The notes below the pieces were generated by a model. That model had not been told where the DNA came from, did no database searches, and was given only the letters and a program-made list of their open reading frames with translations. Source: Candidatus Krumholzibacteriia bacterium (GTDB taxonomy: Bacteria; Krumholzibacteriota; Krumholzibacteriia; LZORAL124-64-63). Taken from it: a stretch of 64,000 nucleotides of DNA. Every line of letters starts with the position of its first letter. Position 1 is the first letter of the stretch. Position numbers and translations under genes: made by a program. Positions 1,133 through 19,456 of the stretch are shown here, piece by piece. The stretch lies in the NCBI GenBank assembly GCA_014859985.1, contig JACZKN010000092.1:5980-69979 (forward strand), read 5' to 3'.

Positions 1133-1324
1133 CCGTCTCCAGGCTCCAGACCTACCTGACGAAGATGGGATGGGCGTCGCCGGGACTTTGGTGGGGGCCA
1201 TTCAGTACAACCCCACGGCCCCCGGAGGTGATTCCGCAGTCTGAATTGATTTTCGTTGAGGGAGCTTCAGCTCCGCGCCGTTAGTGCGGGCTTGCGGACG
1301 GGGTTTTGCGTAGGGGCAGGCAGG

Positions 1325-1981: not shown

Positions 1982-3012
1982 ACATGCACCGGCGGCGACT
2001 GCAAGATTGTGGCGATTGCGCGGCTAATCGGGAGGCCGGCAAGCTTTTCCGTCCATAGCCACTGTCCGTTTGGGTTCAGATCGAGAAATACAAACTTGCC
2101 GGTGGGCGTCACTGCGAAATCGATGCTCGCGAAATACAGCCCGAGGGATCTGACGAACCGGGTGCATGTCGCCTCCACTTCTTCCGGGAGCGCTATCGCC
2201 CTGTGAGAGACCTCGTCGAAGTTGTACCTCCGATAGTCGTGACGCGTGTCTGGATAGTCCTGTGAATGGATTGCGCACGCGAAGACTTGGTCTCCAACCA
2301 CGGTTGCTCTTACTTCGAATGCCTTAGGAATCCTCTCTTGGACAAGGCATGGTGCGGACTTCCACAAATGGTCGAGGACCAAGTCTTCTTCATTCAGGGG
2401 TTGCGAATATACAGCGTGCCTTCCGGTCGGGTAGTCGATCCATTGACTTCGTTGCAGCTTGAAGATCACGTCTCGGTTGTGATCCTCGTAGAACGCTCGT
2501 GCAAGCGTCACCGATGTCGTGACGAGTGTGTCAGGTATGTTGAACCCAAACCGTGCCGCCAGTTGATACTGGTAGCACTTCCGGTCCAGGGGTTCGTACA
2601 CGTCGCGATCGCACAAAACGAAGCCATCAAAGGCGGTGACAAGCGCCCTGAGGAGTTCGTCACGTTCGGAGACGATGATTCTGTGCTCATCTGAGCTCAC
2701 GCCAGCCGTGGCAGTGTCGGGGTCCTGGATTCTTCGGTGCCATATCGACCGCAAAGCCGTTGACGGTATTACTTCCATTCCAATCTGGATGGACCAACTG
2801 GCGTTTCCGGCTATGTGTTGGAAGCAAGGCTCGTGCTCGAATGGGTACTTGTCCGTATCGATTCGAACGAACGGTGTGCCCTCGTCCTCAAGCCACTCGC
2901 ATACGGCGGTTGCGTGTGGGTCGTCCGAGTAGGTTAGGATGAGAACGGTCAAGCGGGTCTCCCAAGCATACCAAGAAGGTGTTGCGCGGGGAGCATCGTA
3001 CCCGCGGGCCAC
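1978..3012 (-). CDS. ATP-grasp peptide ligase (MdnC/MvdD-like graspetide maturase family)
   Basis: N-terminal LTVLILTYSDDPHATAV..FVRIDTD and C-terminal FVFLDLNPNGQWLW..GLPI fit microviridin-type ATP-grasp ligases. GTG start at 3012 taken from the ORF track. Confidence 0.65.
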   Translation of the reverse strand: MARGYDAPRATPSWYAWETRLTVLILTYSDDPHATAVCEWLEDEGTPFVRIDTDKYPFEHEPCFQHIAGNASWSIQIGMEVIPSTALRSIWHRRIQDPDTATAGVSSDEHRIIVSERDELLRALVTAFDGFVLCDRDVYEPLDRKCYQYQLAARFGFNIPDTLVTTSVTLARAFYEDHNRDVIFKLQRSQWIDYPTGRHAVYSQPLNEEDLVLDHLWKSAPCLVQERIPKAFEVRATVVGDQVFACAIHSQDYPDTRHDYRRYNFDEVSHRAIALPEEVEATCTRFVRSLGLYFASIDFAVTPTGKFVFLDLNPNGQWLWTEKLAGLPISRAIATILQSPPVHV

Positions 3013-3033
3013 GACTTGGCCAAGCCTGACTAG

Positions 3034-3213
3034 CTAGTAGTCGTCGGGCACCCAAACACCGCCGATGGTGCTAGCCGAGGGCCACGTGGCGGCCTGCTCG
3101 CTCCTTGGGATGACGACCGGCGTCGCCTTCCGTCCAGCGAGCGTCTGGGCGGTCTGCTGGACGGCGGGCGGACGATCGGTGGAGCGGTTGGGTTGGGTGT
3201 TGGCGGTGTTCAT
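3034..3213 (-). CDS. candidate precursor peptide (59 aa) for the ATP-grasp ligase: MNTANTQPNRSTDRPPAVQQTAQTLAGRKATPVVIPRSEQAATWPSASTIGGVWVPDDY
   Basis: Hand-translated; absent from ORF track (below 60 aa). ATG at 3213 (minus) preceded by GGGGAGAAcg SD; stop 21 nt upstream of the ATP-grasp start; C-terminus rich in Thr/Ser and Asp (ester donor/acceptor residues). Confidence 0.5.
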   Translation of the reverse strand: MNTANTQPNRSTDRPPAVQQTAQTLAGRKATPVVIPRSEQAATWPSASTIGGVWVPDDY

Positions 3214-3701
3214 CGTTCTCCCCCTAAGTATTCACTTGCGATGAGTTCGCTTGAAGCGTGTGACCATGCGAGCGAGGCGAGTCAATTGAGAAATACGAGC
3301 AAGAAACTGTAGTCCAGAATCACTGGCCTGACCTCTCCCTGCGACAAGCGTTAACCCGCCAACGTGGGAGCAAGGCGGCGGACGAGCGATAGTACCTGCG
3401 AGCAATGCTTGCCCGTGCGAACGATACCAGATTCGACGCCTGTTTTCAAGCAACTTGGCGGTAGGACTTGGCGGTAGGATAGCTGGGTGAGGCCGTGCTA
3501 GCCCCAACTTGACCACAGATCTGCCACCGTGAAGGACTAAGGCGTAGTAGCGTAGATAGTTGCAGCGATATCGGCCGACATCTTGTAGGGGCGACTCATC
3601 GGAGCTAAACAACTATATTAGCTTCACAATTTCGCATTATTCACTGTACAAGTCGGGGCGACCGTGATAGCATACCCCCAGCCAAGAGGAGCTGGCGGCC
3701 C

Positions 3702-3917
3702 ATGCATCTGCGCATTTCCACCAGGAAGAAGGACCGTAAGACCTACCAGTACGTCCAGCTCGTCGAGAGCTTCCGGCGTGACGACGGCGTCCCCAGCCGC
3801 CGGACCGTCGCTAACTTGGGCCGGCTGACCGACCGTGAGATCGCCAACCTGCGCGTTGCCCTGCAGGCGTCGAGGTTGGGGATCACGCTTGAGCTTCCCG
3901 AGAGCGCCGACGATTAG
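3702..3917 (+). pseudogene. IS1634-family transposase N-terminal fragment (remnant)
   Basis: MHLRISTRKKDRKTYQYVQLVESFRRDDGVPSRRTVANLGRL matches the conserved N-terminus of IS1634-type transposases; ORF stops after 71 aa with no continuation; lower-GC scar 3240-3700. Confidence 0.5.
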
Positions 3918-3988
3918 GCCGATGGCATTAGCAGCCGCCGCACTGCAGCCTCAGTTCGGAGGCCCCATGCATTCGACCATCACCCACC

Positions 3989-4162
3989 CTACTTCGCCGC
4001 CGCCGTCTTCACTTTCGGCAGCACCTCGCACCCGTAGTAGCAGCACGCGCCCTTCTTCGCCTTGGGCGTCAGGCCGAGATCCTTGATCGCCTTCTTCACT
4101 TTCGTGTCGGGCAGGCCGAGCTCCTTCGCGATCGCACCGGCGGTCAACAAGTCGTCGGGCAT
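3989..4162 (-). CDS. small hypothetical protein (57 aa) with HTH-like N-terminus and CCYYGC motif
   Basis: Internal ATG at 4162 preceded by GAAGGAGGA SD; AIAKELGLPDTKVKKAIKDLGL helix-like. Confidence 0.35.
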   Translation of the reverse strand: MPDDLLTAGAIAKELGLPDTKVKKAIKDLGLTPKAKKGACCYYGCEVLPKVKTAAAK

Positions 4163-4271
4163 TGGTCGGTCCTCCTTCGCTTGCCATGGGCAGTTGGGTC
4201 CGGGGCTCGTGAGTTCAGGAACCTGGGGACGATAGATCGTAGTCATCTCTCAGCCCGTTGCTGAGGCGCGC

Positions 4272-5177
4272 TCATTTCACCAAGACCATCCTCTTCGTCT
4301 CGCTGTAGTCGCCGAACTCAAGGCGATAAAAGTAGACGCCAGCGGCTACGCGACGGCCCGCCGTATCTCGGCCTCGCCATACGGCTTCGTTGCGCCCCTC
4401 ATTAACGGTCTCGTTGCCGAGTATAACATCTACCAATCGTCCCGCCGCGTCGAACACCGAAAGGCAGACAACCCCCTGCTCAGTCACGTAGAATGGGATC
4501 GTCGTAGAGGGATTGAAGGGATTGGGGAAACACGGGCGAAGCAGGTCCTTCCCGGCGACCTCGCCGAGTTCACCCGCACTCGACAAACCAAGACCGTATG
4601 CCGTCCAGGCAAACCCACAGTAACCCCATGTCTCGTCACCTGTACTCACCATACGCACCCCCACCTGATAGTCGGGGTGTTCCTCTACTAGGCCGGCGGG
4701 AATCGTCAGAAGCAGCGTAGCGGTCATGACGCCGGGCGTCAGCGGATTCGCGTCGAATCGGAACTCCGCGTCCGTATTGATGTCATATCTTGTATCGTAT
4801 ATGAATACGATTTCATTCGGCTCAGTACCCCCGTCACTGACAACGCCAGCTCCGGTGAGCGGGAAAAAGTTACCTGGGCCGGCTCCGGCGCCATAGATCC
4901 TCAATCGTATTGCATTCGAGGTAGCTCCCGTTGGAGATTCGAGCGCAAGCGCCACGAGTACCCTATCAAGGCCGCCGCCACAGCTCCCGACGCAATATGT
5001 CGTACTCTCCCTGGACGGTGCAAACGACCAGAGCGAGAAGCCATTCCCGCCAGAACATCCACCCGTTCGGACCCAATAGTCCGCGGCATTGACTGCCGGC
5101 CCAGACCCCAACACGCCCACCAGAAACAACATGGCAATTCCGAGTGGACGCAAAGTACCTCGCACTTGCCGCAACAT
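4272..5177 (-). CDS. secreted protein with C-terminal FlgD-Ig/T9SS-like sorting domain
   Basis: Signal peptide MLRQVRGTLRPLGIAMLFLVGVLGSGPAVNAA from ATG at 5177; C-terminal CFPNPFNPSTTIPFYV...GVYFYRLEFGDYSETKRMVLVK motif. Confidence 0.55.
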   Translation of the reverse strand: MLRQVRGTLRPLGIAMLFLVGVLGSGPAVNAADYWVRTGGCSGGNGFSLWSFAPSRESTTYCVGSCGGGLDRVLVALALESPTGATSNAIRLRIYGAGAGPGNFFPLTGAGVVSDGGTEPNEIVFIYDTRYDINTDAEFRFDANPLTPGVMTATLLLTIPAGLVEEHPDYQVGVRMVSTGDETWGYCGFAWTAYGLGLSSAGELGEVAGKDLLRPCFPNPFNPSTTIPFYVTEQGVVCLSVFDAAGRLVDVILGNETVNEGRNEAVWRGRDTAGRRVAAGVYFYRLEFGDYSETKRMVLVK

Positions 5178-5852
5178 GAAGCACCCCGCGTATTCAGGAA
5201 AGTATGCCCCCCAGTGGACCAGGGGACCCAAAATGGTCTGCCACAGGGAAAAGGCTATCACAGATGGAGACACGATCACAAGTCGACGGGCACTTTCGCG
5301 GCATTCTCAGGCAACGACCATTCGAGCTCCCGGTTGTCCAATCTCGAGCGCGTGCCGCGGGCGCGACGGTATCGGCTTCGTCCCAGACGCCCCAAACCTC
5401 ACATTCATACCCCCAATAAGACCAGGCCAGCGGCCGGTATATCATTTAGGGGGATGATAGATACAAAGTCGCCCCTACAACGCTCTCGCAAGCGATTGCT
5501 GCCCAACGATTACACGTTTGGTGTGGTCGAGATTCTGACAACTGCTGGGTCTGAGCACCGCACAAAAACACAGACACAGACTGGTTCAGACAAAAACCGA
5601 CGGCCGTTCTGTTAACCGCGGGCGATTCAGACAGGCACGGTTCTCGCCTCCCACCCTCGCAAAACCCTTTGCCCCCGCGTCTTATAGCGACAAAAAAAGC
5701 AGGCGCAATGCACCTGCCCTCGTTTCCCTATTTGAAAAACTTGGCTCCCCAAACGTAACAGTTCTCGACACCGCCGCCGGCCCGGATGGGCCAAGCCCGA
5801 GGTCTGGTTCCGGATCGTCCATATCGCCCAGGAAGGCGCGGATAGGGCACCA

Positions 5853-6311
5853 GTGGCCGCCTACCGCGAACAGACGGTGGAAATCGCCCTGGGGCCCAAG
5901 GGGGCGTTCCAGACCGGGATCGTGGGCGCCCTGAAACGACGGGTGGCGCCTGACCAGACCGTCAACGCCCTGTCGGCCAAGGCCCGGAACCGGAAGCCGC
6001 CCAAGCCTCCCCAGACCCCGAAAGTGGTCGAGCTTCTCAGGACGGCCCAGGAGTGGCGGCGACAGCTCGACGCGGGCGAGGTCACGAACCAGGCCGAAAT
6101 CGCCCGTCGAGAAGGGATCACGCGCGCCCGGGTGACCCAGGTCATGAGTCTGGTACGCCTCGCGCCCGATATCCAGGAATACGTCCTGTCCCTCCCCGAA
6201 ACGGTCCGCCGACCGATAATCACCGAACGCGCTCTGCGGCCCATCGCGCTCCTGGAGACGGCGACCGACCAGAAGACCAGGTTTCAGGAACTCATCTCGG
6301 ACATCTCGTAG
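5853..6311 (+). CDS. DNA-binding protein with ParB/KorB-type HTH
   Basis: EVTNQAEIARREGITRARVTQVMSLVRLAPDIQEYVL resembles the ParB-family HTH; no ParB N-terminal nuclease motif. Confidence 0.4.
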   Translation: MAAYREQTVEIALGPKGAFQTGIVGALKRRVAPDQTVNALSAKARNRKPPKPPQTPKVVELLRTAQEWRRQLDAGEVTNQAEIARREGITRARVTQVMSLVRLAPDIQEYVLSLPETVRRPIITERALRPIALLETATDQKTRFQELISDIS

Positions 6312-6381
6312 AACGCACCCGTGATCAACTGGTGTGCTGAACAGGTTGCACCGCGGCAAATCGTGGGCTATTCTCGCCGAC

Positions 6382-7113
6382 ATGCCAAGATTTGACGACT
6401 TCATCGTATTCGTGGACGAGAGTGGGGACCATTGGATGGCCACCCCGGACCCGAATTACCCGATCTTCGTCCTTGCGTTCTGCCTCTTCAAGAAGAGCGA
6501 CTACTCCCATGTCGCCGTGCCAAAGCTGATCGACTTCAAATTCAAGCACTTCGGACACGACCAGATAGTTCTGCACGAGCGCGAGATCAGGAAATCGAAG
6601 GGTGACTTCAGCATACTCCAAATCGAGTCGGTTCGGGAAGCTTTCCAGCGCGACACAAACCAACTGATAGAAGATTCCCCGTTCACGCTAGTTGCCGGAG
6701 TGATCGACAAGGTCCGACTCCAGAACAACTACGCTACCCCGGAGAACCCGTACCACCTCGCAATGACGTTTGGCCTGGAGCGGATCTACCTTCATCTACA
6801 CAACTTTACGCCAGGAACGGTCTGGTTTGTCTTTGAGGAGCGGGGCAAGAAGGAGGATGCCGATCTGGAGCTGCAATTCCGGCGGGTGTGTGAAACAAAC
6901 GCAACGAGGAATGCGCTTCCGTTCAGAATCCGGTTCGCTTCGAAGGCCTCGAATTCGTGTGGGCTCCAGATCGCTGATCTGCTCGCGCGTCCGATCGGCC
7001 GGCACGTGATGAACCCGACCCAACCGAACAGGGCCTATGAGATCATCGAGCCGAAGTTCAGACGGAATCCACAGGGACGGATTGAAGGCTGGGGGCTCAA
7101 GGAGTTCCCGTAA
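6382..7113 (+). CDS. DUF3800-family protein
   Basis: N-terminal FIVFVDESGD and C-terminal GLQIADLLARPIGRH hallmarks; ATG at 6382. Confidence 0.55.
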   Translation: MPRFDDFIVFVDESGDHWMATPDPNYPIFVLAFCLFKKSDYSHVAVPKLIDFKFKHFGHDQIVLHEREIRKSKGDFSILQIESVREAFQRDTNQLIEDSPFTLVAGVIDKVRLQNNYATPENPYHLAMTFGLERIYLHLHNFTPGTVWFVFEERGKKEDADLELQFRRVCETNATRNALPFRIRFASKASNSCGLQIADLLARPIGRHVMNPTQPNRAYEIIEPKFRRNPQGRIEGWGLKEFP

Positions 7114-7221
7114 AAGCGAAGGGCCCCGACTTTCGCCGAGGCCACAACGCCGACCGAGTATTCCCAGTCCATTTTCACACAGGTTAGGGCTGGCCGGCCC
7201 GGGAGTCAATGGGAAATCGAG

Positions 7222-7953
7222 ATGAAATTGCTAACCGTAGATCAAAACGAGATCGCCACACGGCGGGTGAACGAGGCCATTGAGAAGCGCATAGGCCAGC
7301 TCCGGCTGGACTTGAAAGCCCTGAAGGAAGAGCTGAGTAACCGAGGCCTTCAGCTCGACTCGGGCGTTGCGTATCAGGAGTTCGCTCGACTAGCAGGGAC
7401 CACACTGGATGACCTAATTTGGGGTGCTTGGATGGCCCTACGCGACTTTCTAGGGGAAGTCGATCTCATCGCTCCAACCGGACTCGCCCGCGACGTCCAC
7501 GAGTTTCTTCGCCCGCAGACCGATCAACTTGAGCGTGTCGCCTTGGGGGTCGTCTACGAGAACCTCCACACTCTGAAGGAAGGGAATCCGAAGTACCGTA
7601 ATGAACTCGATCTCGCGCTCAAGAAAGCAATAGGCGATCGCAAACGACAGGTCTGGAACCGCGTCTGTACGGATTCCCGGTTGCTTGAAGAGCGACTAAG
7701 GAAGGAACAGCAAGTAGACGATCGAAGGGAACGACGCGCCGACAGGCGAGCACTCACGACCGCGATCTGGACCGTCGTAGCGACGGTGGTGCTAACAACG
7801 CTTGCCGGCCTTCTATTCAGGCCACGCGGTGAACCGGCTGGAGTCGCTCGACCAGAAAGTATCCAGCAGGTCGAAGTGCTACCAGATACGACATCTGCCG
7901 ATACTGTCGTCCGAGCGCCCTTGGACACAGCGACCGTAGACACGACGCGCTAG
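7222..7953 (+). CDS. coiled-coil protein with C-terminal transmembrane anchor, hypothetical
   Basis: 243 aa; charged helical N-terminal part, TM segment ALTTAIWTVVATVVLTTLAGLLF. Confidence 0.4.
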   Translation: MKLLTVDQNEIATRRVNEAIEKRIGQLRLDLKALKEELSNRGLQLDSGVAYQEFARLAGTTLDDLIWGAWMALRDFLGEVDLIAPTGLARDVHEFLRPQTDQLERVALGVVYENLHTLKEGNPKYRNELDLALKKAIGDRKRQVWNRVCTDSRLLEERLRKEQQVDDRRERRADRRALTTAIWTVVATVVLTTLAGLLFRPRGEPAGVARPESIQQVEVLPDTTSADTVVRAPLDTATVDTTR

Positions 7954-8924
7954 TTCTCCAATAAACGCTTGAGCGACCCGCGAACATCACCGATGTACCT
8001 ACCCGCCGCACCAAGAGCCTGCGACACGAGGATATGCCGTTCGTTCTCCAATTCGCCGACGATGTGGTCGACAAACAGCTGAGGCACTCCAAGATGCCTC
8101 GCTATCTCGTTGGTCTGGCGAAGTCCATCGTTGAGGATCGCGAGGATGACGTTGCGATGGATCTCACTAAAGTTCGGCACATATGCCTCGAAGTAGGTCG
8201 ACCAGCCGTAGTTTGTGACTTGGAAGCTGTCGAGGTTTGGCCCCAATGTAGCGTGAACCTCAACGAGCCCATGGTTCTCTAACACGTCGAGTGTGTCCCG
8301 CAATTCAGCCTCCGGAATGGCCAGGTCCCTGAGGACCAGGCCTGGCTCAACAAGGTACTCGCCTGACTCGACCATGAACTCGCACGAGTACTTGAACACT
8401 GCGCTATCCAGAGAGTTGAGGCCGTAGATGTGGGCAGCGTCCGCGGTCACGTATGCCGGGGGCGGCCCCAGTGGAGGCTTTGGCCGGTGATCGTAGACTG
8501 CGGCAACGATACTCTCGATCGCCTGCGTCGGGTCCTCTAGGTCATCAACCCGCTGCCAGACCGTAGATCGGAGTGGCTCCGGCACGTCGCAACCGTCGAG
8601 AACGACGGGGATGATCCTCGCTCCCTTCTGGATACGGCCAACGACAGCGGCGTTGAGTTCCTCCTTCACCCACGGCTTCGAGACGCTGAACTGCGAGAGT
8701 ACAAGGATCACTGCCGATGCGTTTCGGAGGCCTTCGTTGAAGATCTTATCGACAAGCGAATCGCCTGGAAGGATTTCCCAGAAATCGAGCCATACGTCAA
8801 TACCCCGCTCGCGCAGTTGCTCTGCGAGTCGGAACACGAAACGTTCCTTATCCTCGGAGGCGTGACTCAAGAACACTCTCGGGGCGCGGTCTTTGGTTTC
8901 CATGACACGAATGCTCCTTGTCAC
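7950..8924 (-). CDS. TIR-domain protein with tandem winged-helix-like C-terminal domains
   Basis: RVFLSHASEDKERFV...AVILVLSQFSVSKPWVKEEL is a canonical TIR with the catalytic Glu context; C-terminal repeats LRDLAIPEAELRDTL and LRQTNEIARHLGVPQ look like wHTH. Confidence 0.65.
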   Translation of the reverse strand: MTRSIRVMETKDRAPRVFLSHASEDKERFVFRLAEQLRERGIDVWLDFWEILPGDSLVDKIFNEGLRNASAVILVLSQFSVSKPWVKEELNAAVVGRIQKGARIIPVVLDGCDVPEPLRSTVWQRVDDLEDPTQAIESIVAAVYDHRPKPPLGPPPAYVTADAAHIYGLNSLDSAVFKYSCEFMVESGEYLVEPGLVLRDLAIPEAELRDTLDVLENHGLVEVHATLGPNLDSFQVTNYGWSTYFEAYVPNFSEIHRNVILAILNDGLRQTNEIARHLGVPQLFVDHIVGELENERHILVSQALGAAGRYIGDVRGSLKRLLEN

Positions 8925-9197
8925 CGGGCGGGCACGGGTCCTACTTGCCGATCGTGTCGTAGTTGGGAACGGTGCCGTCCCTGCGATGAACTACGACTCC
9001 ACCGTCGCCCTTCCGTCGGGCGATCTTGTTTGCTGACTGGTCGGCCTCGTGCTGAGGTAGGCGACGGTTTTCCCCCTGGGCTCCATTGTGCTTCCCGCGT
9101 CAACCGACTTTGGGATAAGGCATTACTGGCCGATCGTTGGATCTTTCCGCCATGGTCAGCCCCCTAATCTACAAGTACCTCCCACCGGAAGAGGACA

Positions 9198-11279
9198 CTA
9201 TTGACCAATAGCCAGGTCATCGAGGAACTCGGATGATGGTTCAACGCCGGTAACCAGGAGGTGGTCGCGCGCTCGCGTGCAGGCGACATAGAGTAGATGG
9301 CGTTCGGTGTTGTAGACCTCTTCAAGGTCCGCGTCATCCGCCACCGATTCAATTCGCTCCTGTAACGGCAGCACCTCATCGTCGCAGGCCATCACGGCGA
9401 CAGCTCGGAACTCGAGGCCTTTGGCCAGGTGCATCGTACAGATCGACACGCTCCCCGGCCGAGTGTCGAAGCTCTCCCGTAGCTCCAGGGCTTCAAGACC
9501 GGCGCGCTCCACCGCCGCCCTGGCACGGGGAAACTGCGCCGCAGAGCGCACGAAGATCCCGACCTCGCGCGGCTGCAACCCGTCCTTGCGAAGATCGACC
9601 AGCCAATCCGCGACGGACGCGATCTCATCCGATTCATCATCGAATCGTCGCAGCTCAGGGTTGGCTCCGTTGAACACGGACACCGTTCCGCGTCGGTTCT
9701 CCCGGTTCCCATCCACATCGGCCAATTCGGCTGGCAACAATCGATCTGCCTGTTGGCGGATCTGATGGGACGTGCGGTAGTTGACCCGCAAGGTAGAGGA
9801 GCGCCCACGCACGTCGACACCGAGAGACTTCCAGGAAAACGGCGGTTGGAATATTCGCTGTCCAAGATCGCCGGCGAAGAATAGCCCATCTGGACGACCC
9901 GTTGAAAGCGCAGCCAGAAAGCGTAGCTCGGGGACGCCGATATCCTGTGCCTCGTCCACGACAGCGAAGTCATACGGGCAGCTACTAGCGGCGAGGAGCC
10001 GCTTGGAAACCGCGGCAAACATCATGGCCATGGTGATCTCGCCACGTCTTGCTAGCTCTTGCCACACCCGGTCGAATACCGACCACAGGACCTGCCTCTG
10101 CTGCTCACCAAGTCTGGTCTTTCGCCCCAAGCGGGCAACATCCCGGTAAGTCTCCCATGTGTCCAGTTGCCACGCATCGACGACATCGTTCCATTCCGTC
10201 CACAAGAAGTGATCTGTGAATCGGTGGCCGCCAACGTCACGCGAAGCGCTCTTCAGCATGGCGCGCAACTCGGGCTCATGGACCAATTTCGGTTTGGTCA
10301 CCAAAGCGGCGTGCAGCCGCCGCCCGACCTCGCCGATCGCCAGGACCTCGATCCTTTCGAACAGTCTCGCGTCATTTCCGACCAGACGGCGCAGCTTTAC
10401 ACGAAGTGCGTCTGCCAGAGTGCCGGAAAACGTGGTCAGAAGAACGCGCGCGTTCTCATCTCGCTTTGCAAGGAATGCTGCACGGTGAAGTGCAACGACG
10501 GTCTTTCCTGTACCCGCGGAGCCTGCCACGCGCGCGGGGCCGGTGAACGTCCGCTCGACCAAGGTGCGCTGCGCCGGATGTAGGAATACCGTCCACTTTT
10601 CCCACGGGTAGTCCAGAGCCAGGCGCAGTTCATCGACGTTCGCCATGACCCGGAACCGGCGAAGCGCATCGGGATGCTCAAATGGATCGCCTTGCTCAGT
10701 TGCAGCGACAGGGACAGGTGGCATCCCCCCTGTGGCGATCTCGAGCAAAGCCTCGGCCGCCTCAGCTGGAAGACGGTCTGCGAGCTCGAGAATCGTGTCT
10801 TCTGTCGCTGTACGCACATTGGCTAGCCAATCGACCGGCACGCCATACGACAAGAGCGTGTGGTCATCAAGCGCAGCAAACGGGGTCTTCTGCGGCCGTT
10901 CGGGTTCCTGGGCCTCGATGAATTTGGGGATGACGATCTCTTGGTACGTCTCGCGGATCTCGACAATCTGAGCGGCACCCGTTGTCGGGTGTGCTTCCAG
11001 CTTACGCTTTTCCGCCCACCGATAGGCGTCATCGTGATGCCCGGCAAAGCAGAGCACCAGGCTCGCTGCGGTCTTGTGGACAATCAGACGCAGATCCTTG
11101 CTGACCCGTACCGACCAGAAGTTCTTGTCCTTCGCCTTCTCGAGCTTGTGGAACTGCATGCTCGGGTGTGCCGGATTGACCTGGAGGTCGAATGCCGTCG
11201 TCTTGACGGCCTTCTGCTCGTCACCTGAGAGTCGGCCCAGGCTGGTCGTAAAGGTGTCGGCAATTCGAAACGTAATCAT
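9198..11279 (-). CDS. UvrD/Rep-like SF1 helicase with N-terminal RelE/ParE-fold domain
   Basis: Helicase motifs I GSAGTGKT, II VVDEAQD, VI TMHLAKGLEFRAV; first ~100 aa (...LQVNPAHPSMQFHKL..WSVRVSKDLRLIVHKTAASLVLCFAGHHDDAY) follows the RelE/ParE toxin pattern; start overlaps Mod stop (ATGA). Confidence 0.65.
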   Translation of the reverse strand: MITFRIADTFTTSLGRLSGDEQKAVKTTAFDLQVNPAHPSMQFHKLEKAKDKNFWSVRVSKDLRLIVHKTAASLVLCFAGHHDDAYRWAEKRKLEAHPTTGAAQIVEIRETYQEIVIPKFIEAQEPERPQKTPFAALDDHTLLSYGVPVDWLANVRTATEDTILELADRLPAEAAEALLEIATGGMPPVPVAATEQGDPFEHPDALRRFRVMANVDELRLALDYPWEKWTVFLHPAQRTLVERTFTGPARVAGSAGTGKTVVALHRAAFLAKRDENARVLLTTFSGTLADALRVKLRRLVGNDARLFERIEVLAIGEVGRRLHAALVTKPKLVHEPELRAMLKSASRDVGGHRFTDHFLWTEWNDVVDAWQLDTWETYRDVARLGRKTRLGEQQRQVLWSVFDRVWQELARRGEITMAMMFAAVSKRLLAASSCPYDFAVVDEAQDIGVPELRFLAALSTGRPDGLFFAGDLGQRIFQPPFSWKSLGVDVRGRSSTLRVNYRTSHQIRQQADRLLPAELADVDGNRENRRGTVSVFNGANPELRRFDDESDEIASVADWLVDLRKDGLQPREVGIFVRSAAQFPRARAAVERAGLEALELRESFDTRPGSVSICTMHLAKGLEFRAVAVMACDDEVLPLQERIESVADDADLEEVYNTERHLLYVACTRARDHLLVTGVEPSSEFLDDLAIGQ

Positions 11280-14137
11280 TCGACTCTGAACACCTTCATC
11301 ACCTCGTCACCGAGATGGTTGATCACCTTCACTGCGATTCTGCCACCTGCAGGCTTGTCGAATGGACGCGATGTATCGCTATGCAAACTCTCCCAGGCAT
11401 CCTCGTTGATCTCCGCCTTGAGGGTCGTCTTGAGGCTCTTGTATGGGTCACTCGCGCCGAGAAAGTAGGCGTGGCGAACGAAGAAGCTCTCTCCGTTGTA
11501 GTCGGTGTCGATGAACCAGCATGCGATGCCCTCGGCGCCGTCGCTGCGGACCTCGCCTGTATTCGGGTGGAACACGTCCACGCCGTTGATCCGCACTTTG
11601 ATCTGGCTGTCCTCGGCGTCGTCACTATCGACCGGAAGAACGTCGATATCCGGCTCGCCGAAGATCACGAACAGGTTGCCCTTGCCGGTGTTCTTCAGGT
11701 CGTCGGCCATGTGCAGGTCGGCGTTCATCCGGGCCTTGAGCACCGGGACACGGCCGAGCTTGTCGAACTCCGACGAGTGGGCGTCGTAGTTGAAAGCGCA
11801 CGCGATCAACACGTCGAAGCCCGCATCGCCGGCCTCGCGGGCGGCCAGCACCAGATCCTGGCGGCTGACGGTGCCGAATTCCGGGCCGATGAAGATGCCC
11901 GCTCTACGGGTCTCGTTGCCACCCTTTCCGTCGGAGAACATACCCTCGGCGCAGATGAATGTGCCCGGCCAGCCCTTGATGGAGCTGAAGTTGATCTTGT
12001 CTTCCTTGTGCGCCTGCTGCACGCCTGCCGTCTTGAGGTTGTCCAGGATCATCTCGACGAAGCCATCACCATCTGCCACCGGCTGCGGGCCAGCCTGCTG
12101 CGGATCGATCAGCTCGTCGTTTTCATCCACGTCCATCACGCGGTGTGGGCTGAGCGATTCGACGGTGAATGGCCCGGCCACGCGGACTTTGCTGCGATCC
12201 TCGTAGGGTTTGTCGAAGAGGAACTCGAAGTCGGCCTTGGCAGCGATGGAGGCGTCAATCTTCCGCTGGCGCGCGATGCGAGCCTTCCACCAATCGCTGT
12301 GGAGCTTCTTTGTTGTGTCCGGCCATTTCGTGTCAGCCTCGCGTGGAATCTCCCAATCCTCCCACTTGGTCTTCATCGCGGCGTTCAGCGTCTGGCGTTG
12401 TGGCTCGAGCGCCTCCTGCCACTTCTCCCAAATGACGTCGATCTCGGCATTGTTGGCAATCGACTTGAGAGTAATGTGCGGGACACGCTCGTAAACGAAG
12501 CCGTGGCGGATGTTGCCATAAACTCGTTGGGTGCTCGGTGTTGTATGGGTAAGCTCAGCTTCCTTGAGCTGGCCGTCCATGGAGTCAGCGAGTATGTAGT
12601 AAGGATAACGGGCGCCCATGATGCGAGCGCGAGCAAGAGCTAAGGCCACCCGAGAGGTGTCAATCGTTATCCAGCGGCGGCCCCACTGCTCCGCAATCGC
12701 CGCTGTAGTCCCTGCGCCACAAGTTGGATCCAGAACGAGGTCGCCTGGGTCCGTTGCCATAAGGACGCAGCGTTGAATTACCTTCTCATTGGTCTGCACC
12801 ACATACATTTTGCGGTCGCTTGTGAACCCGGCCACGCCCGTATCTGTCCAGACGTTAGTGCGGGGCATTACGGCGAAGTCGTCAAAGTAACGTTTGTATC
12901 TCAAGCTGTTGCCAACGACCAATAATCGATTTGCCTTGCGCAAGCGGTGCATTCCAACTGTGGAAGTGGACCAGTACCGATGACCGCTCCGAAACTCTTT
13001 GCCGAACGCCGAGATCGGCTCCGAGAGACTTTCGTGTGACGACGTGAGGTCGCTAGCCGCAAACACCCGTACGTTGTCGCTGGGGTCTGGGTCAACAAGG
13101 TCACTCAAACTGAGTCGCTTGGTTTGACCGTCTTGGAGCTCGGCATAGTTGTATCCTTTGGAACCCGTCCCCCCGAGTTCTTTCAATTCGACGGAGTTGC
13201 GATACTTCACGCGCTCAGAATCTTTAGCGTACCAGAGAATTGTGTCATTCACTTGGGGCAAGAGTCCTCGACCTTGGGTGCTAGTCGTGACGTAGTGTAT
13301 GGTGGCGCAACAATTCTCATCGCCGAACACTTCATCAAGTAGCGCCCTCACGCGATGCGTGTGCTCATCGCCGATCTGGACGAAGATCGATCCCGTTTCT
13401 GTCAGCAAGTCACGTGCGACAGTCAGGCGGTCACGGAGGTAGGTTAGGTACGAGTGAATACCATCCCGCCAAGTGTCGCGGAAGGCCTTGACCTGTTCTG
13501 GCTCGCGGGTGATGTGCTCGACGTTGCCGTCCTTGACATCGCGGCTGGTGGTGGACCACTGAAAATTGGAGTTGAACTTGATACCGTACGGCGGGTCGAT
13601 GTAGATGCACTGCACCTGCCCGCGTAGACCTTCGCGTTCGGTCAGGGAGGCCATCACCTGGAGCGAATCGCCCAGGATCATGCGGTTGGTCCAGTTGGCG
13701 TCGTGCTGGTAGAACTCAGTGCGAGCGTTCTCGTTGGGAAGACCGTTGAAATCGGCGAACAGATCGGGAAACAGGCTAGGCGCGGCATTCTCGGCTTCCT
13801 CGTGCTCCTGTTGCTGAGTGCGGCGCATCAGGTCATCGATCAGCACCTTGGGGTGGACCTTCTCCTGGATGTACAGCGGCGGTGCGTAGACGATGAGGTC
13901 CGACCAGTCCTGCTCATCCTTGCCCCGCCAAACAAGCTGCGGATCTAGATCGCGGTTGCGCGCAGATTTCTCCTCGTCCAGCCCGCCCGCACCCCGTTCG
14001 TAGGTTACCTCGATGGGTCGAGCGTGGTGCTCCGGCACGACAGACTCGAGCTCGGCGGTAGGGATATTCTTGCGCGACGCTTCCTCGTGAGTCAGCGTTT
14101 CGACCGTCTTCCGCTTCTTGCTTACTCGCTTCGCCAT
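11276..14137 (-). CDS. mod: Type III-like N6-adenine/N4-cytosine DNA methyltransferase (Mod, beta-class) with long N- and C-terminal extensions
   Basis: Motif IV QCIYIDPPYG precedes motif I LDPTCGAGTTAAIA (beta order); 953 aa; SD AAAGGA before ATG. Confidence 0.7.
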   Translation of the reverse strand: MAKRVSKKRKTVETLTHEEASRKNIPTAELESVVPEHHARPIEVTYERGAGGLDEEKSARNRDLDPQLVWRGKDEQDWSDLIVYAPPLYIQEKVHPKVLIDDLMRRTQQQEHEEAENAAPSLFPDLFADFNGLPNENARTEFYQHDANWTNRMILGDSLQVMASLTEREGLRGQVQCIYIDPPYGIKFNSNFQWSTTSRDVKDGNVEHITREPEQVKAFRDTWRDGIHSYLTYLRDRLTVARDLLTETGSIFVQIGDEHTHRVRALLDEVFGDENCCATIHYVTTSTQGRGLLPQVNDTILWYAKDSERVKYRNSVELKELGGTGSKGYNYAELQDGQTKRLSLSDLVDPDPSDNVRVFAASDLTSSHESLSEPISAFGKEFRSGHRYWSTSTVGMHRLRKANRLLVVGNSLRYKRYFDDFAVMPRTNVWTDTGVAGFTSDRKMYVVQTNEKVIQRCVLMATDPGDLVLDPTCGAGTTAAIAEQWGRRWITIDTSRVALALARARIMGARYPYYILADSMDGQLKEAELTHTTPSTQRVYGNIRHGFVYERVPHITLKSIANNAEIDVIWEKWQEALEPQRQTLNAAMKTKWEDWEIPREADTKWPDTTKKLHSDWWKARIARQRKIDASIAAKADFEFLFDKPYEDRSKVRVAGPFTVESLSPHRVMDVDENDELIDPQQAGPQPVADGDGFVEMILDNLKTAGVQQAHKEDKINFSSIKGWPGTFICAEGMFSDGKGGNETRRAGIFIGPEFGTVSRQDLVLAAREAGDAGFDVLIACAFNYDAHSSEFDKLGRVPVLKARMNADLHMADDLKNTGKGNLFVIFGEPDIDVLPVDSDDAEDSQIKVRINGVDVFHPNTGEVRSDGAEGIACWFIDTDYNGESFFVRHAYFLGASDPYKSLKTTLKAEINEDAWESLHSDTSRPFDKPAGGRIAVKVINHLGDEVMKVFRVE

Positions 14138-14148
14138 TATGAAATCCT

Positions 14149-17100
14149 TTAGGCCGTCTGATTGGTTACGGAGTCGATCATCCTGTTGAACTCGGCCTCG
14201 ACTCTGGCCTCGAAATCGCTGCCGATCTGGTAGACGTCAGCGAACTCTGCAAACGCCCATCGGCCGTAGGTGCCAAGGTTATTCACTCCAGGTACCCAGT
14301 AGACGTCCATCGTAGACTTCTTCTCCTTGGCGTCTTCGCCGCGATATCCCTTGATCTCCACGACCAAGTGTAGCGGATCATCTTCTCCGCGTCCGTCGTC
14401 AACCAGGACGATGAAGTCGGGGATGTACGTTCGCATCTGGGAGCCGAAACGATACGGCACTTCCATCCCGAGGTTGTGATTTTTGACGTACGACCGAACG
14501 CAAGGATGCGCCTCCGCCACGCGGCAGAACTCCGCCTCCCAGTCGCTATCCAGAATGACCCAGTTGATGTGGCAACGTCTGGAATCCGTCTGCCACCGGT
14601 CTCTTTTCGATGTGTTGAAGTTCACAAATGAAGTCGAACCCGTCGGGTTATACGGATCAAGCACGGCCTTGATCGGCCGCTCGCCGATGAGCGAGCGGGT
14701 GATACCGGCTGTGATCCGCTCGCAGGCCATGTCTGCCAATTCCTGGTACATCAGTAATGCCGGGTAGGTGTCCCCTTTGCACTCGAGGCAGCTTTCCAGC
14801 CACTGCTTCGTTATGCGCTTTAGCTGCCCGAATAAATGAAGCTTTGGCTCCTCACCAGGATCTCGCCACTTCGTGTAAAGCAGCCGCTTCGTGACGTGGA
14901 ACAGCAACGTTGAGCGGCGCATGTCCCCAAGGTGCTCGAGGCTCAAATCGACGTCTTCGCCAATGATTCCCGCGTTCTTCGTGATCGATGGGCCAACGAT
15001 ATCGGGCGTCAGTACTAGAACCGAATCGTCGTTGAATTCAGCCGACAGCCTCTCTTCCGGCAACTCCACACGATAGCCATCCACTCGGGGAAAGCGGATC
15101 TCCAAGGAGTCGCGCTCTGGCCGTACAGCTTTGACTTGCACGGTTTCCCGCGGGGGCTGAGGCGGCGCTACTACCGGCTTAGCAGTGAAGTCGAACGGTA
15201 CGCCGAGAACGTCGGCATATTCGACGTTGAAGAGATTCTCTTCGTTCAGGTCATAGGATTGCCTGCGAAGAGCACGGCCGATGACCTGCTCACATAGCAA
15301 CTGCGTGCCGAACGCTCGCACACCCAGAACGTGTGTGACGGTGTTGGCGTCCCAACCCTCGGTCAGCATGGAGACCGACACCACGCAGCGGATCGATTCT
15401 CCCAGACGGTCTGGCTTCCCGACCGTGTTCATCACTTCTCGGAGCAGGTCTTGGTCTGTGAGGTTTTCGGCCTGCCGGAGGTCACCTGTTCGCTCGACGA
15501 TCTCTCGACGAAAGCGATCGATCTCGTCTGAGGCGAGATCTCGGAAATTCTTGTCCAGGGCATCCCCAGATTCGAGTTGTTCGCTGTCGATCAGCAAAGT
15601 CCGTGGGCGACCCAGTGGATTGCCATGGTCGTCAAAGTTTCGAAAGAGCTCCAGCCGGCCATTCTCGAGCGTTGTCGAACCGTCCTCGTTCTCTCTCTGG
15701 AAGCCAGAGATATAGTCGTACACCAGCTTCGAGGTCGAAGTGTTGTTGCAGACGACAATGAAGCATGGCGGGACCTTGATGGATGCCTTCTGCCATAGTT
15801 CGTATGTCTTTTCATAGTGGCCATAGAGGGCTTCAAGTGCTGTCTGCAACTCAACAGGGATGCTGAGTGGGTCAAGCGTCTTCCCTTTGCCGCGCCCCTT
15901 CTTTGGCATCCGCTTCCCGATATGCTCCCAAAGGTTCCGGAACTTCGGCATCTCCTCGCCTGGAATGTTGTCGGCGACCGGAACGCGAGGAAGTTTGACG
16001 ATGCCGCATTCGATGGCATCCATGAGCGAGAAGTCGCACATCGTCCAAGGGAAAAGGGTGCCTTCGGCGTAGCCGGAACCTCGCAGGAAGAACGGGGTCG
16101 CCGATAGATCGAAGACCTGGGCGAGGCCAAGCTTCCGGTTAATGGCTTCCAGACCCGAAATCCACACCCTTGCGGCTTCGTTGTTCTTTTCCGCTTCCTT
16201 GCGGTCGTCCCCCTTGAGGTCTCCCTCGTCATCGTTGACCTGCTTCTCGCGATAGCAGTGATGGCCTTCGTCATTGAGCGCCAAGACGTTTTTCATGCCC
16301 ATCAAGTCGGGCATGACTCGCTGAAGCATCTGCCCTTCCGATTCAAGGGTACTCAACTCCTCGCCACGTCCCTGAAGCAGTGAGCGACCGCCCTTCGACA
16401 GATCCAGCCGTTCCCGCAGCTTGAACGAGTGGAAGTTCGTAATGACGATCTTGGCGCGATCGAGATCGGCCAACATGTCGTTGGGTACGAGTTCGCGACT
16501 CTGGTAGTAGCTGTCGGGATCGTTGGGCAACAAGACGCGTAGGCGGTCACGGATCGTGATTCCCGGTGCGACGACAACGAAACCACGCGTGAACTTCTTG
16601 CTGGTTGGCCTCCGCACTGCGTTGATTGTCTGCCAAGCGATGATCATCGCCATGACCGTGGTCTTCCCTGCACCAGTCGCCAGCTTGAGCGCCAACCGTA
16701 ACAGCTCAGGATTGGCCTGTTCGTTCGCAGCCTTAAGATGATCAACGAGCTGGCGCCCTGTCTTGCCAGACTTCGGCGCGACCTCCCAAAGCCAAATAGC
16801 GGTCTCGACGGCTTCCAACTGGCAGAAAAACGGACGAAAGGAGGCGAACTTATGGTGCCGCCAATGTTGGAGGAGCCGAGCTGTCTCCGGCGTCACCTGC
16901 CATTGACTGGAGTTGGGCAGCGCTCTCCAACGATCGACTTCCCTGCGAACAGCATTGATGATCGGTGTCGGGTCATATTGCTGTTCTTGGGTCGAGAGCC
17001 CTTTGCCCTCATTGAAGACGATCTCTTGCTGCGTCTTCTTCTTGTGCTTCCGAGGCTTGGGAATAGGCGTTATCAGCTGGCAAGGCCGACGACGATCGAC

Positions 17101-17202
17101 AACTTTCTGGGTCGGTTGGCCGTTCTCATCAAGCTCCCAATGACGAATGGGGTAGTCGTATGGAGAATTGAGGATTGGATGCTTGAAGAACTCGTGATCC
17201 AT
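14149..17202 (-). CDS. res: Type III-like restriction endonuclease/helicase subunit (Res)
   Basis: MDHEFFKHPILNSPYDYPIRHWELDENGQPT N-terminus, Walker A LATGAGKT, DEGHH box, C-terminal PD-(D/E)xK-like D...EIKGYRGEDAKEKK. Start moved to internal ATG at 17202 because the track ORF upstream overlaps the HTH gene in another frame. Confidence 0.7.
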   Translation of the reverse strand: MDHEFFKHPILNSPYDYPIRHWELDENGQPTQKVVDRRRPCQLITPIPKPRKHKKKTQQEIVFNEGKGLSTQEQQYDPTPIINAVRREVDRWRALPNSSQWQVTPETARLLQHWRHHKFASFRPFFCQLEAVETAIWLWEVAPKSGKTGRQLVDHLKAANEQANPELLRLALKLATGAGKTTVMAMIIAWQTINAVRRPTSKKFTRGFVVVAPGITIRDRLRVLLPNDPDSYYQSRELVPNDMLADLDRAKIVITNFHSFKLRERLDLSKGGRSLLQGRGEELSTLESEGQMLQRVMPDLMGMKNVLALNDEGHHCYREKQVNDDEGDLKGDDRKEAEKNNEAARVWISGLEAINRKLGLAQVFDLSATPFFLRGSGYAEGTLFPWTMCDFSLMDAIECGIVKLPRVPVADNIPGEEMPKFRNLWEHIGKRMPKKGRGKGKTLDPLSIPVELQTALEALYGHYEKTYELWQKASIKVPPCFIVVCNNTSTSKLVYDYISGFQRENEDGSTTLENGRLELFRNFDDHGNPLGRPRTLLIDSEQLESGDALDKNFRDLASDEIDRFRREIVERTGDLRQAENLTDQDLLREVMNTVGKPDRLGESIRCVVSVSMLTEGWDANTVTHVLGVRAFGTQLLCEQVIGRALRRQSYDLNEENLFNVEYADVLGVPFDFTAKPVVAPPQPPRETVQVKAVRPERDSLEIRFPRVDGYRVELPEERLSAEFNDDSVLVLTPDIVGPSITKNAGIIGEDVDLSLEHLGDMRRSTLLFHVTKRLLYTKWRDPGEEPKLHLFGQLKRITKQWLESCLECKGDTYPALLMYQELADMACERITAGITRSLIGERPIKAVLDPYNPTGSTSFVNFNTSKRDRWQTDSRRCHINWVILDSDWEAEFCRVAEAHPCVRSYVKNHNLGMEVPYRFGSQMRTYIPDFIVLVDDGRGEDDPLHLVVEIKGYRGEDAKEKKSTMDVYWVPGVNNLGTYGRWAFAEFADVYQIGSDFEARVEAEFNRMIDSVTNQTA

Positions 17203-17213
17203 TGGGGGCGTCC

Positions 17214-17435
17214 TTAGGCTTTCTGATTGCGATTCTGACTGAGCCACTTGTCGATCGCAGTTTTGTGGAAACGCCAGTGGCGGCCGATCTTCTGACCGGG
17301 TACGTCCCCCCGGCGCGCCAGGTGATAGAGCGTCGATTTCGGTAGCTTCAGGTATTCGGCCAGCTGGTCGATGGTTAGCACCATATCTCGCGGTTCTTTC
17401 ATCAGTAACACCTCGCCGTGCAAGGCGAAGCGCAT
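17214..17435 (-). CDS. excisionase/AlpA-family HTH DNA-binding protein (possible controller of the R-M operon)
   Basis: LTIDQLAEYLKLPKSTLYHLARRGDVPGQKIGRHWRFHKTAIDKWL; stop 11 nt before Res ATG. Confidence 0.55.
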   Translation of the reverse strand: MRFALHGEVLLMKEPRDMVLTIDQLAEYLKLPKSTLYHLARRGDVPGQKIGRHWRFHKTAIDKWLSQNRNQKA

Positions 17436-17681
17436 TGCACAGTCGGAATGAGTGCAGGAGATAGTAGGCGTCGCTGGCAGTTGCTGTCAATTGTTGTTGG
17501 ATATCAGCCAGCAATGGCCACAGCAAGACGATTAACGCGTTTTACGTCACCGCATTAAGTCAGGAAGATGGAGATAGGGAAGCGCAGACAGAAGGTGATG
17601 GAGGGTCTCCTCTACTCCTCCGGCGCTGCCTCAATCATCTCGGTTGCGGCAGAACGCAGCCCAATCGACTTGGGACACTGC

Positions 17682-18083: not shown

Positions 18084-18095
18084 TGCTCTCTCCTC

Positions 18096-18590: not shown

Positions 18591-18591
18591 G

Positions 18592-19450: not shown

Positions 19451-19456
19451 TGCAGA

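Follow-up and report, generated by a model that had tools for sequence, protein, structure and literature searches.

The stretch of DNA considered here (the window) spans 64,000 nucleotides from a Candidatus Krumholzibacteriia bacterium (GenBank assembly GCA_014859985.1, contig JACZKN010000092.1, positions 5,980 to 69,979), and the gene of interest within it encodes a 693-residue protein in which an N-terminal domain of predicted RelE/YoeB fold is joined to a UvrD/GajB-like superfamily 1 (SF1) helicase (Table 1). The plus-strand reading of this interval contains many stops, and the helicase gene lies on the minus strand. It closes an operon that runs, entirely on that strand, in the order HTH_17 gene, Res (a restriction endonuclease of the BPTD_3080 family), Mod (a Type III-class DNA methyltransferase) and helicase. 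An earlier reading of the same DNA made from the sequence alone (the sequence-only reading) had described the gene as the last of a restriction-modification (R-M) operon, overlapping the stop codon of Mod. Both statements hold. The helicase gene ends the Type III-like Res-Mod operon, and the Mod-helicase junction reads GTCGAATGATTACG, in which the TGA stop of Mod and the ATG start of the helicase gene share the letters ATGA at positions 11276-11279. The helicase gene is translationally coupled to Mod.

The description of Res and Mod as Type III-like in the same reading is likewise borne out by profile searches. Mod matches the PADLOC model MTase_III (PDLC03632) from end to end (E = 0), while Res carries ResIII and endonuclease domains and scores 1381 bits against the NCBIfam model NF046055 ('BPTD_3080 family restriction endonuclease'), for which the cut-off is 800; the PADLOC REase_III models scarcely detect it (E = 8e-5). 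A start of Res at the TTG at 17526 was rejected. The extended open reading frame (ORF) that it would open (14149-17526) overlaps the HTH_17 gene in another frame and is an artefact; the NF046055 match begins at residue 115 of this ORF, an independent gene call gives 1017 residues, and the real ATG stands at 17202, 108 codons further in. With respect to content, the operon has what is expected of a Type III R-M system, namely a Res made up of a superfamily 2 (SF2) helicase and an endonuclease together with an N6/N4 Mod. The layout departs from the canonical two-gene mod-res arrangement in that res precedes mod, a third gene is conserved, and cargo genes are often present in related loci. 'Type III-like' is a safe label for the system.

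Table 1. Features of the Res-Mod-helicase operon, with example cargo spans from related loci. Positions refer to the window unless a locus is named; residues are those of the helicase protein.
Feature	Position	Strand	Basis or remark
RelE/YoeB-fold + UvrD/GajB-like SF1 helicase gene (ArmD-like)	9198..11279	-	single ORF, 693 aa
RelE/YoeB/YafQ-like domain, residues 1-90	11010..11279	-	beta1-alpha1-alpha2-beta2-5-alpha3; invariant H44, S56, R58, R64, H68, H82, D83 (see text), Y86
Conserved beta-hairpin HPxTGAAQxVExRE, residues 92-110	10950..11006	-	strands 92-96 and 103-107 in model
Small helical domain, four helices, residues 135-190	10710..10877	-	pLDDT ~80-85 even from single sequence
Pre-helicase segment PFxHPDAxRRF...PWEKWxxF, residues 199-232	10584..10685	-	invariant columns in homologue alignment; aligns with ArmD
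UvrD/GajB-like SF1 ATPase-helicase core, residues 233-693	9201..10583	-	Pfam UvrD-helicase, AAA_19, UvrD_C and UvrD_C_2 above cut-off
Walker A / motif I GSAGTGKT, residues 253-260 (K259 = ArmD K266)	10500..10523	-	alignment with ArmD
Walker B / motif II VVDEAQD (DEAQD 442-446; D442 = ArmD D454)	9942..9962	-	alignment with ArmD
Motif VI YVACTRAR (VACTRAR 665-671)	9267..9290	-	A666, C667, T668, R669 and R671 invariant
Mod, Type III-class N6/N4 DNA methyltransferase, 953 aa	11276..14137	-	Pfam N6_N4_Mtase, E = 2e-29
Res, BPTD_3080-family restriction endonuclease, 1017 aa	14149..17202	-	SF2 ResIII helicase + C-terminal endonuclease (Pfam ResIII, RE_endonuc)
HTH_17 (excisionase/AlpA-like) gene, 73 aa	17214..17435	-	11 nt upstream of Res; Pfam HTH_17 on identical public contig
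Sigma-70-like promoter match TTGACA-18-TACTAT	17461..17490	-	just upstream of HTH_17 gene; consensus match
Example cargo spans in related loci (L001-L080)	L020:6490-10004; L019:1327-3078; L001:9191-9973		

The UvrD-like helicase claimed in the sequence-only reading is recovered by Pfam, whose UvrD domains score above their cut-offs (UvrD-helicase PF00580, residues 234-477, E = 1.5e-12, 48.2 bits against a cut-off of 23; UvrD_C PF13361, residues 590-677, E = 2.5e-18, 67.1 bits against a cut-off of 25.6), and motifs I, II and VI were all located. The motif residues tabulated across 120 homologues, namely D442, G253 and residues 665-672 of motif VI, are invariant or nearly so. In PADLOC the best match of the helicase is a candidate model named 'NERD+UvrD' (E = 2.8e-26), followed by many GajB profiles with E values down to 1.6e-21. 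The NCBIfam models of UvrD, Rep and PcrA score 40-67 bits against cut-offs above 900, indicating that the helicase is not their orthologue, and the HelD cut-off is likewise far off; a weak similarity to HelD and HelR, which are UvrD-like RNA polymerase-recycling factors, is seen at E ~1e-11 to 1e-12. As judged from these profiles, the helicase is a defence-type UvrD-like protein and not a housekeeping paralogue. ATP-dependent unwinding of, or translocation on, DNA is predicted from its motifs and from the phenotype of a Walker A mutant (K266A) of its homologue ArmD, which is introduced below. Many members of the family are named '3'-5' exonuclease' by the NCBI pipeline; no exonuclease domain was detected here, and the name looks misleading.

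The fold of the N-terminal domain was assigned by structure because searches by sequence gave only weak signals. Pfam reports a HigB-like match at E = 0.055, a search of the PDB with the single N-terminal sequence found no match, and a PDB profile search with the N-terminus reached YoeB at a non-significant E value of 0.95, along with spurious matches to armadillo repeats. An AlphaFold2 model of residues 1-232 was therefore built from 31 homologues. It has a predicted local distance difference test (pLDDT) score of 78-91 over residues 1-100 and the topology beta-alpha-alpha-beta4-alpha; a single-sequence model of residues 1-233 was unusable for the toxin domain (pLDDT 26-49), and the alignment-based model was used. 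Foldseek searches with this model returned members of the RelE superfamily, with E values down to 2e-5 and template-modelling (TM) scores of 0.70-0.76, and the matches include Cami1 bound to the 70S ribosome. The N-terminal strand, two-helix hairpin and antiparallel sheet of 3-4 strands that define the RelE/ParE superfamily fold, in which a C-terminal helix is optional, are all present, and on the strength of the model the assignment to the RelE superfamily is secure. The sequence-only reading had proposed a RelE/ParE fold for the first ~100 residues. The fold itself agrees with both the model and Foldseek. Within the superfamily the domain probably belongs to the branch of ribosome-dependent ribonucleases (RNases; YafQ, RelE and YoeB), where its best structural matches fall, and not to the ParE branch. 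Sequence identity to free toxins is 16-22%. When representative sequences were searched exhaustively with residues 1-115, 2282 relatives were recovered; among the 150 listed, every one is a close fragment from the helicase's own family and none is a stand-alone toxin.

The catalytic positions of the domain were compared with those of known toxins by hhalign. Aligned with E. coli YoeB, the family profile places H44 on E46, R64 on R65 and H82 on H83, and its FWSxR motif falls on the FWSRR of YoeB; aligned with E. coli RelE, R64 is placed on R61, H82 on R81 and Y86 on Y87. The YoeB and RelE references were single sequences, whose numbering reproduces the published catalytic residues. Those residues are E46, R65, H83 and Y84 in YoeB, and K52, K54, R61, R81 and Y87 in RelE. 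Among the 120 homologues of the R-M-linked clade, H44, R64, H82 and Y86 are invariant (120 of 120) and D83 is present in 116. On the question of the sequence-only reading, whether catalytic residues are retained, YoeB E46, R65 and H83 and RelE R61, R81 and Y87 can be aligned, at an hhalign probability to YoeB of 27%, with positions that do not vary, and RelE K52 and K54 have no equivalents. The domain probably retains an intact YoeB-like active site. Two further elements are appended to the toxin fold. Residues H97, P98, T100, G101, A102, A103, Q104, R109 and E110 of the beta-hairpin are invariant in the 120 homologues, and the hairpin motif is recognisable in ArmD. The helical domain carries conserved GVPxxW and LPxEAAEAL motifs that are also shared with ArmD; an armadillo-repeat identity for this domain was rejected, the sequence matches being spurious. 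Neither the hairpin nor the helical domain has a counterpart in free toxins, and the former is a candidate in-cis regulatory element.

The helicase family is large and its association with the R-M genes is strong. More than 8000 homologues were found, thousands of them metagenomic, which are typically ~65% identical and ~690 residues long. Their hosts include Planctomycetota, Acidobacteriota, Nitrospirota, Chloroflexota, Verrucomicrobiota, Gemmatimonadota, Bacteroidota and several proteobacterial classes, the closest genomic relatives being from Phycisphaerae. A tblastn search of 50,697 phage records gave no match, leaving a phage-borne origin unsupported. Linkage was surveyed in 80 genome loci, of which 56 have at least 4 kb of upstream flank. 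The same Mod lies upstream on the same strand in 51 of these 56 (91%), across many phyla, so that the co-occurrence suggested as a check by the sequence-only reading is found. Res precedes Mod wherever the flank reaches far enough. Downstream of the helicase, the genes of related loci form no conserved cluster, and the helicase is consequently the 3'-terminal gene of the module. Furthermore, the three proteins diverge in step: across 26 taxa, Mantel correlations of divergence are r = 0.65 for helicase and Mod, r = 0.52 for helicase and Res, and r = 0.38 for Mod and Res (all p <= 0.0015), indicating that the helicase tracks the divergence of Mod and Res at least as tightly as these track each other. 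By these comparisons Res, Mod and the helicase travel as a unit. The sequence-only reading had named two outcomes that would count against it, an N-terminus that fails to model as a RelE/ParE fold and a common stand-alone helicase unrelated to R-M. A RelE fold was modelled, and the helicase, rather than standing alone, is linked to R-M.

Examination of the Mod-helicase junction in related loci reveals a second feature of the system. The helicase gene abuts Mod, as it does in the window, in only 12 of 62 loci, and the other 50 (~80%) hold between 0.1 and 9.9 kb of additional DNA at this point. Of the cargo ORFs, 100 of 112 are co-directional with the operon, and the last cargo ORF ends no more than 50 nt from the helicase start in 28 of 45 cases (spacing in related loci was scored as 'within 50 nt'; homologues start one residue off the query). 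Its content is highly variable across loci and is dominated by known defence genes, which include IetA/IetS, HamA with a DEAD helicase (Hachiman), GmrSD, SIR2, AbiJ and AbiL, as well as AriA-, GajA- or OLD-like and PARIS-like ATPases, KAP NTPases, ABC-3C components, and RhuM and Schlafen-like proteins. In the window the slot is empty, whereas in most cases such a locus also serves as a carrier of defence genes. Cargo insertion seems to be a general habit of the BPTD_3080 R-M family. In a distant BPTD_3080 R-M locus on plasmid pAQ5 of Picosynechococcus PCC 7002 (L090, 8989-17591), a UPF0175/DUF3368 pair lies between Res and Mod, and a protein with P-loop and dCMP-deaminase domains follows Mod at the place of the helicase. 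The latter was considered as a divergent equivalent of the helicase and rejected, being a P-loop and deaminase protein. The cargo slot is useful and apparently unreported, and the Mod-helicase junction can be mined for new defence systems.

The closest described relative of the helicase is ArmD of the ARMADA type II system, which was defined, ArmD included, by Bell et al. in a 2025 preprint (bioRxiv 10.1101/2025.09.15.676423). ArmD (WP_000218177.1) was found in an O157 genome through a published primer. In BLASTP the window helicase is 32% identical to this E. coli protein (E = 4e-93) over residues 6-686 of the former and 10-701 of the latter, and both the full-length homology and the shared domain order identify it as ArmD-like. 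Like the window protein, the ArmD of E. coli NCTC 12900 (O157 OI-172) comprises a RelE-like domain, the hairpin, the helical domain and a GajB-like UvrD helicase, and its gene likewise stands last in the operon, overlapping the one before it by 4 nt. Its Walker residues align with those of the window helicase (K266 with K259, D454 with D442). All four ARMADA genes are required for defence against phage HK022, the ArmD K266A substitution abolishes defence, and D454N weakens protection with a partial loss (10.1101/2025.09.15.676423). Seven ArmD proteins (two of them identical), which are ~30% identical overall, keep R64, H82, D83, A85 and Y86. Position 44 is His in the window clade. E. coli ArmD has Glu there, which is the residue found in YoeB, and either His or Glu occupies this position in six of the seven ArmD proteins.

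Despite this likeness of the terminal gene, the two systems are not the same. The ARMADA partners ArmA (BrxHII/Snf2-like), ArmB (a PglX-like methyltransferase) and ArmC (a YprA-like helicase) are non-homologous to the BPTD_3080 Res and beta-class Mod of the window, in which no YprA-like (DUF1998/Vsr) or PglX-like gene was found. With a BPTD_3080 Res and an N6_N4 Mod upstream, the system is not ARMADA although the protein is ArmD-like. The window clade is also distinct from ArmD and is very tightly conserved, at ~65% identity across phyla. The same division is seen on plasmids, where tblastn hits with residues 1-232 were split at >=46% versus <=40% identity. In the former group the two contexts inspected (Gemmobacter and Sphingomonas) follow a BPTD_3080 Res and Mod, and in seven more plasmid records the same Res is present or Mod lies under the match. 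In the latter group, six of six contexts inspected follow an ARMADA-II-like array of helicase, methyltransferase and giant helicase. An exception is a 51%-identical copy on the Qipengyuania citrea plasmid NZ_CP098496.1 (L093:9787-21757), which has no methyltransferase. This copy is located between a MkoA-like RecB-family nuclease-helicase and a Hhe/PDC-S37 DUF4011 helicase, with a 4-nt overlap with the latter. Taken together, sequence comparison indicates that the window protein is a new clade, in a new system context, of the recently described ArmD-like kind and not a new kind of protein. A literature search found no description of the R-M-linked clade, the Res-Mod-helicase triad or the cargo slot; coverage was incomplete, and the R-M-linked sister clade is thus apparently, and provisionally, undescribed.

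On balance, the evidence leans towards a reading in which the helicase is a dedicated third component of the Type III-like R-M system, functioning as an ATP-driven accessory sensor-effector that bears a RelE/YoeB-type RNase domain. In the mechanism proposed, Res-Mod would recognise and cut unmethylated invading DNA. Next, the helicase module would load onto the resulting DNA ends, nicks or stalled complexes, as GajB does at termini. This ATP-driven engagement would release the RelE-like domain, which would be held inactive in cis at rest. Finally, the freed domain would cleave RNA, most probably ribosome-bound mRNA, adding a block of translation to DNA restriction. The RNase activity is suggested by the fold and the conserved positions described above. 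The polarity of the fusion, with the helicase as sensor and motor and the RelE-like domain as effector, is suggested by the invariant catalytic positions and by the precedent of Cami1; the reverse, proposed in the sequence-only reading, in which a toxin-like domain gates the activity or localisation of the helicase, seems less likely.

No conserved small ORF was found to adjoin the helicase gene, upstream of which lies Mod or variable cargo and downstream of which no cluster is conserved. The small adjacent antitoxin gene and bicistronic layout of a Type II toxin-antitoxin pair are likewise missing, the toxin domain being fused to a 600-residue helicase. Since no antitoxin gene is conserved, control of the RelE-like domain would have to be exerted in cis or to come from partner proteins, and the hairpin and helical domain are candidates for its internal inhibitors. 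The same module also stands last in the ARMADA type II operon and recurs at least once beside an Hhe-like helicase, and it therefore behaves as a portable putative sensor-effector for large helicase-nuclease defence machines.

Several observations weigh against this reading. ARMADA type II defence is direct and non-abortive, and infected cells remain viable with no metabolic shutdown (10.1101/2025.09.15.676423), which fits poorly with global mRNA cleavage; any RNA cleavage would then have to be local or transient, or the domain may be a non-catalytic adaptor. The ARMADA mutagenesis covered the ATPase motifs alone (10.1101/2025.09.15.676423), and in enterohaemorrhagic E. coli deletion of armD is milder than deletion of armA, armB or armC (second preprint, 10.1101/2025.09.22.677730). 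Within the domain itself, RelE K52 and K54 have no equivalents, R58 is replaced by Tyr in the Thermales ArmD, and the hhalign probability to YoeB is low (27%), coming from single-sequence templates. Additionally, plasmid-borne BPTD_3080 Res genes no more than 46% identical to the window Res occur without the helicase, meaning that the wider BPTD_3080 R-M family functions without it. A number of these points are what would be expected if the RelE-like domain were catalytically dead and only bound a partner (the ribosome, RNA, RNA polymerase, Res/Mod or ArmC), leaving a DNA helicase that processes restriction products as GajB does. Such an adaptor is consistent with the non-abortive character of ARMADA defence, with the missing K52/K54 equivalents and the replaced R58, and with the weak similarity to the RNA polymerase-recycling HelD and HelR. 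The YoeB-triad and RelE-Tyr positions are, however, kept across clades that are 32% identical, which is the pattern of an active site and not of a binding surface, and the best structural matches lie in the RNase branch instead of the ParE branch. A dead adaptor is accordingly regarded as rather improbable.

The PrrC-EcoprrI guard paradigm provides the model for an abortive-infection alternative, in which the helicase protein would be dispensable for restriction as such and silenced by an intact Res-Mod complex acting as 'antitoxin', and the RNase would fire once a phage anti-restriction factor disables or titrates that complex, shutting down translation. Conserved catalytic positions in a gene with no conserved antitoxin nearby would be accounted for in this way, the strongest co-divergence being with Mod (r = 0.65) would fit a physical interaction, and the helicase gene invariably closes a methylation-based system. 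Yet the homologue ArmD is needed for a direct, non-abortive defence in which infected cells are viable and metabolically normal, and the 51%-identical Qipengyuania copy has no methyltransferase, so that an R-M complex is no universal inhibitor of the module. A guard of this type is considered unlikely. It could also be asked whether the helicase is simply an independent defence or addiction gene that landed beside R-M and has no functional tie to Res-Mod, given that the Mod-helicase junction is a hotspot for unrelated defence genes and that the helicase gene occurs in two further contexts. Linkage of 91% with order and strand preserved over many phyla, divergence in step with Res and Mod, and the 4-nt start/stop overlap with the adjacent Mod of the window all argue otherwise. 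Moreover, the helicase is never variable, unlike the cargo, and ArmD is indispensable to ARMADA type II. A chance neighbour of this kind is highly improbable.

The preferred reading, a sensor-effector that serves as the third component of the R-M system, can be extended. In a bolder and frankly doubtful version, the ArmD-like proteins would form a portable, antitoxin-free DNA-sensing module that serves unrelated ATP-dependent restriction machines (Type III-like R-M, ARMADA II and Hhe-like systems). After loading on invader DNA marked or cut by its partner, the helicase would deliver an RNase locally to ribosomes on the nascent transcripts of that DNA, in the coupled RNAP-ribosome complex, and the Mod-helicase junction would be a dedicated slot for the carriage and co-expression of other defence systems. 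If true, such local delivery would silence the genes of the invader without an abortive shutdown, which would reconcile a toxin-type domain with non-abortive defence. There is interest in this locus in any case, since the RelE-like domain, which here and in ArmD is built into an immune machine directed at DNA, has relatives that cleave ribosome-bound mRNA. With three core genes (Res, Mod and helicase) and no cargo, the locus of the window offers a compact, minimal test bed for a very widespread system. Current defence-annotation models would under-call the system: none in PADLOC 2.0 covers the helicase family, and Res is scarcely detected.

At its promoter end the operon begins with the HTH_17 gene, a possible regulator of the operon. 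This gene was considered as a conserved fourth gene of the system and rejected, since it was detected ahead of Res in just 2 of the 29 related loci, those of the closest relatives. The promoter match in front of it is the sole one in 7800-18800; with 1 observed against 3.0 expected the count is not significant, and its position alone is suggestive. An identical 46.7-kb contig, on which the Pfam HTH_17 match was obtained, exists in the public run SRR12686319. Prophage genes (17560-24025) adjoin this end of the operon, with a lambda-family portal gene at 19893-21401 (-) and a prohead protease-capsid fusion at 22046-24025 (+); gene calls on the identical public contig add an endolysin and a holin, which separate the portal gene from the HTH_17 gene.

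The operon, which directly follows a prophage lysis cassette and portal gene, is found in a 19-kb stretch of lower GC content (window 1-19000), where genes have 55-61% GC compared with 66-69% in 19900-59000, a region in which GC at third codon positions (GC3) reaches up to 0.9. This difference suggests that the lower-GC island was acquired separately from the flanking prophage-like region. A gene for a TIR protein with a C-terminal winged helix-turn-helix (7950-8924, -) lies directly downstream of the helicase (Pfam TIR_2, E = 2.9e-28; PADLOC PDC-S66, E = 1.2e-23, and ThsB-like models). It is not conserved beside the helicase elsewhere and probably represents an independent defence gene. Between the helicase and TIR genes, a 273-nt spacer (8925-9197, -) encodes EADQSANKIARRKGDGGVVVHRRDGTVPNYDTIGK in one frame, which by eye resembles the C-terminal half of DUF2188 and may be the remnant of a truncated gene. 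A homologue of UzuA of the Uzume defence system is located at 320-1132 (+; PADLOC, E = 1.7e-57); this gene, the TIR gene and the R-M operon together mark 1-19 kb as a defence island. Also within the low-GC island are an MvdD-type pre-ATP-grasp protein (1978-3012, -) with a partner that overlaps it by 4 nt (1325-1981, -), and a DUF3800 protein (6334-7113, +). At the far end of the window a QatC-like (QueC-family) protein (PADLOC, E = 1.7e-46) is encoded together with an overlapping upstream ORF (60696-62756, -, and 62719-63504, -), a pair that possibly belongs to a Qat defence system.

Several other known systems share features with the helicase protein. The UvrD-like SF1 ATPase core is shared with GajB. 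Gabija differs in that its partner is GajA, an OLD-family ATPase-TOPRIM protein, where the partner in the window is R-M, and GajB has no RelE-like N-terminus; next to the window helicase there is no GajA-like gene, and GajA-like matches occur only in the cargo of some related loci. GajB senses DNA termini made by its nuclease partner GajA, according to a preprint (bioRxiv 10.1101/2023.05.02.539174).

The window domain resembles the ribosome-dependent mRNA endonucleases YoeB, YafQ and RelE in having conserved residues at the putative equivalents of YoeB E46/R65/H83 and RelE R61/R81/Y87, and it shares the FWSxR motif with YoeB. These endonucleases are free toxins of 85-95 residues, whereas the window domain forms the N-terminus of a 693-residue helicase, carries an extra hairpin and has no cognate antitoxin gene. 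Cami1, an ancillary effector of type III CRISPR systems, likewise joins a sensor to a RelE-family ribosome-dependent RNase; its sensor is a CARF domain that binds cyclic oligoadenylate and its host is CRISPR, in contrast to the SF1 helicase and R-M host of the window protein. As a general precedent, R-M and BREX loci harbour defence genes, and the anticodon nucleases PrrC and RloC of Type I R-M loci provide the example of an RNA-targeting toxin wired into an R-M operon. These proteins differ from the window protein in their HEPN-type nuclease, ABC-type motor and type of R-M, and PrrC is abortive where ArmD defence is non-abortive. Finally, classical Type III systems (EcoP1I and EcoP15I) likewise combine a Res made up of an SF2 helicase and a C-terminal endonuclease with an N6/N4 Mod; their canonical form cleaves when two unmethylated sites in inverse orientation are present. 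Relative to these, the window system is distinguished by a res gene that precedes mod, a 953-residue Mod with a long C-terminal extension, a third gene and a cargo slot.

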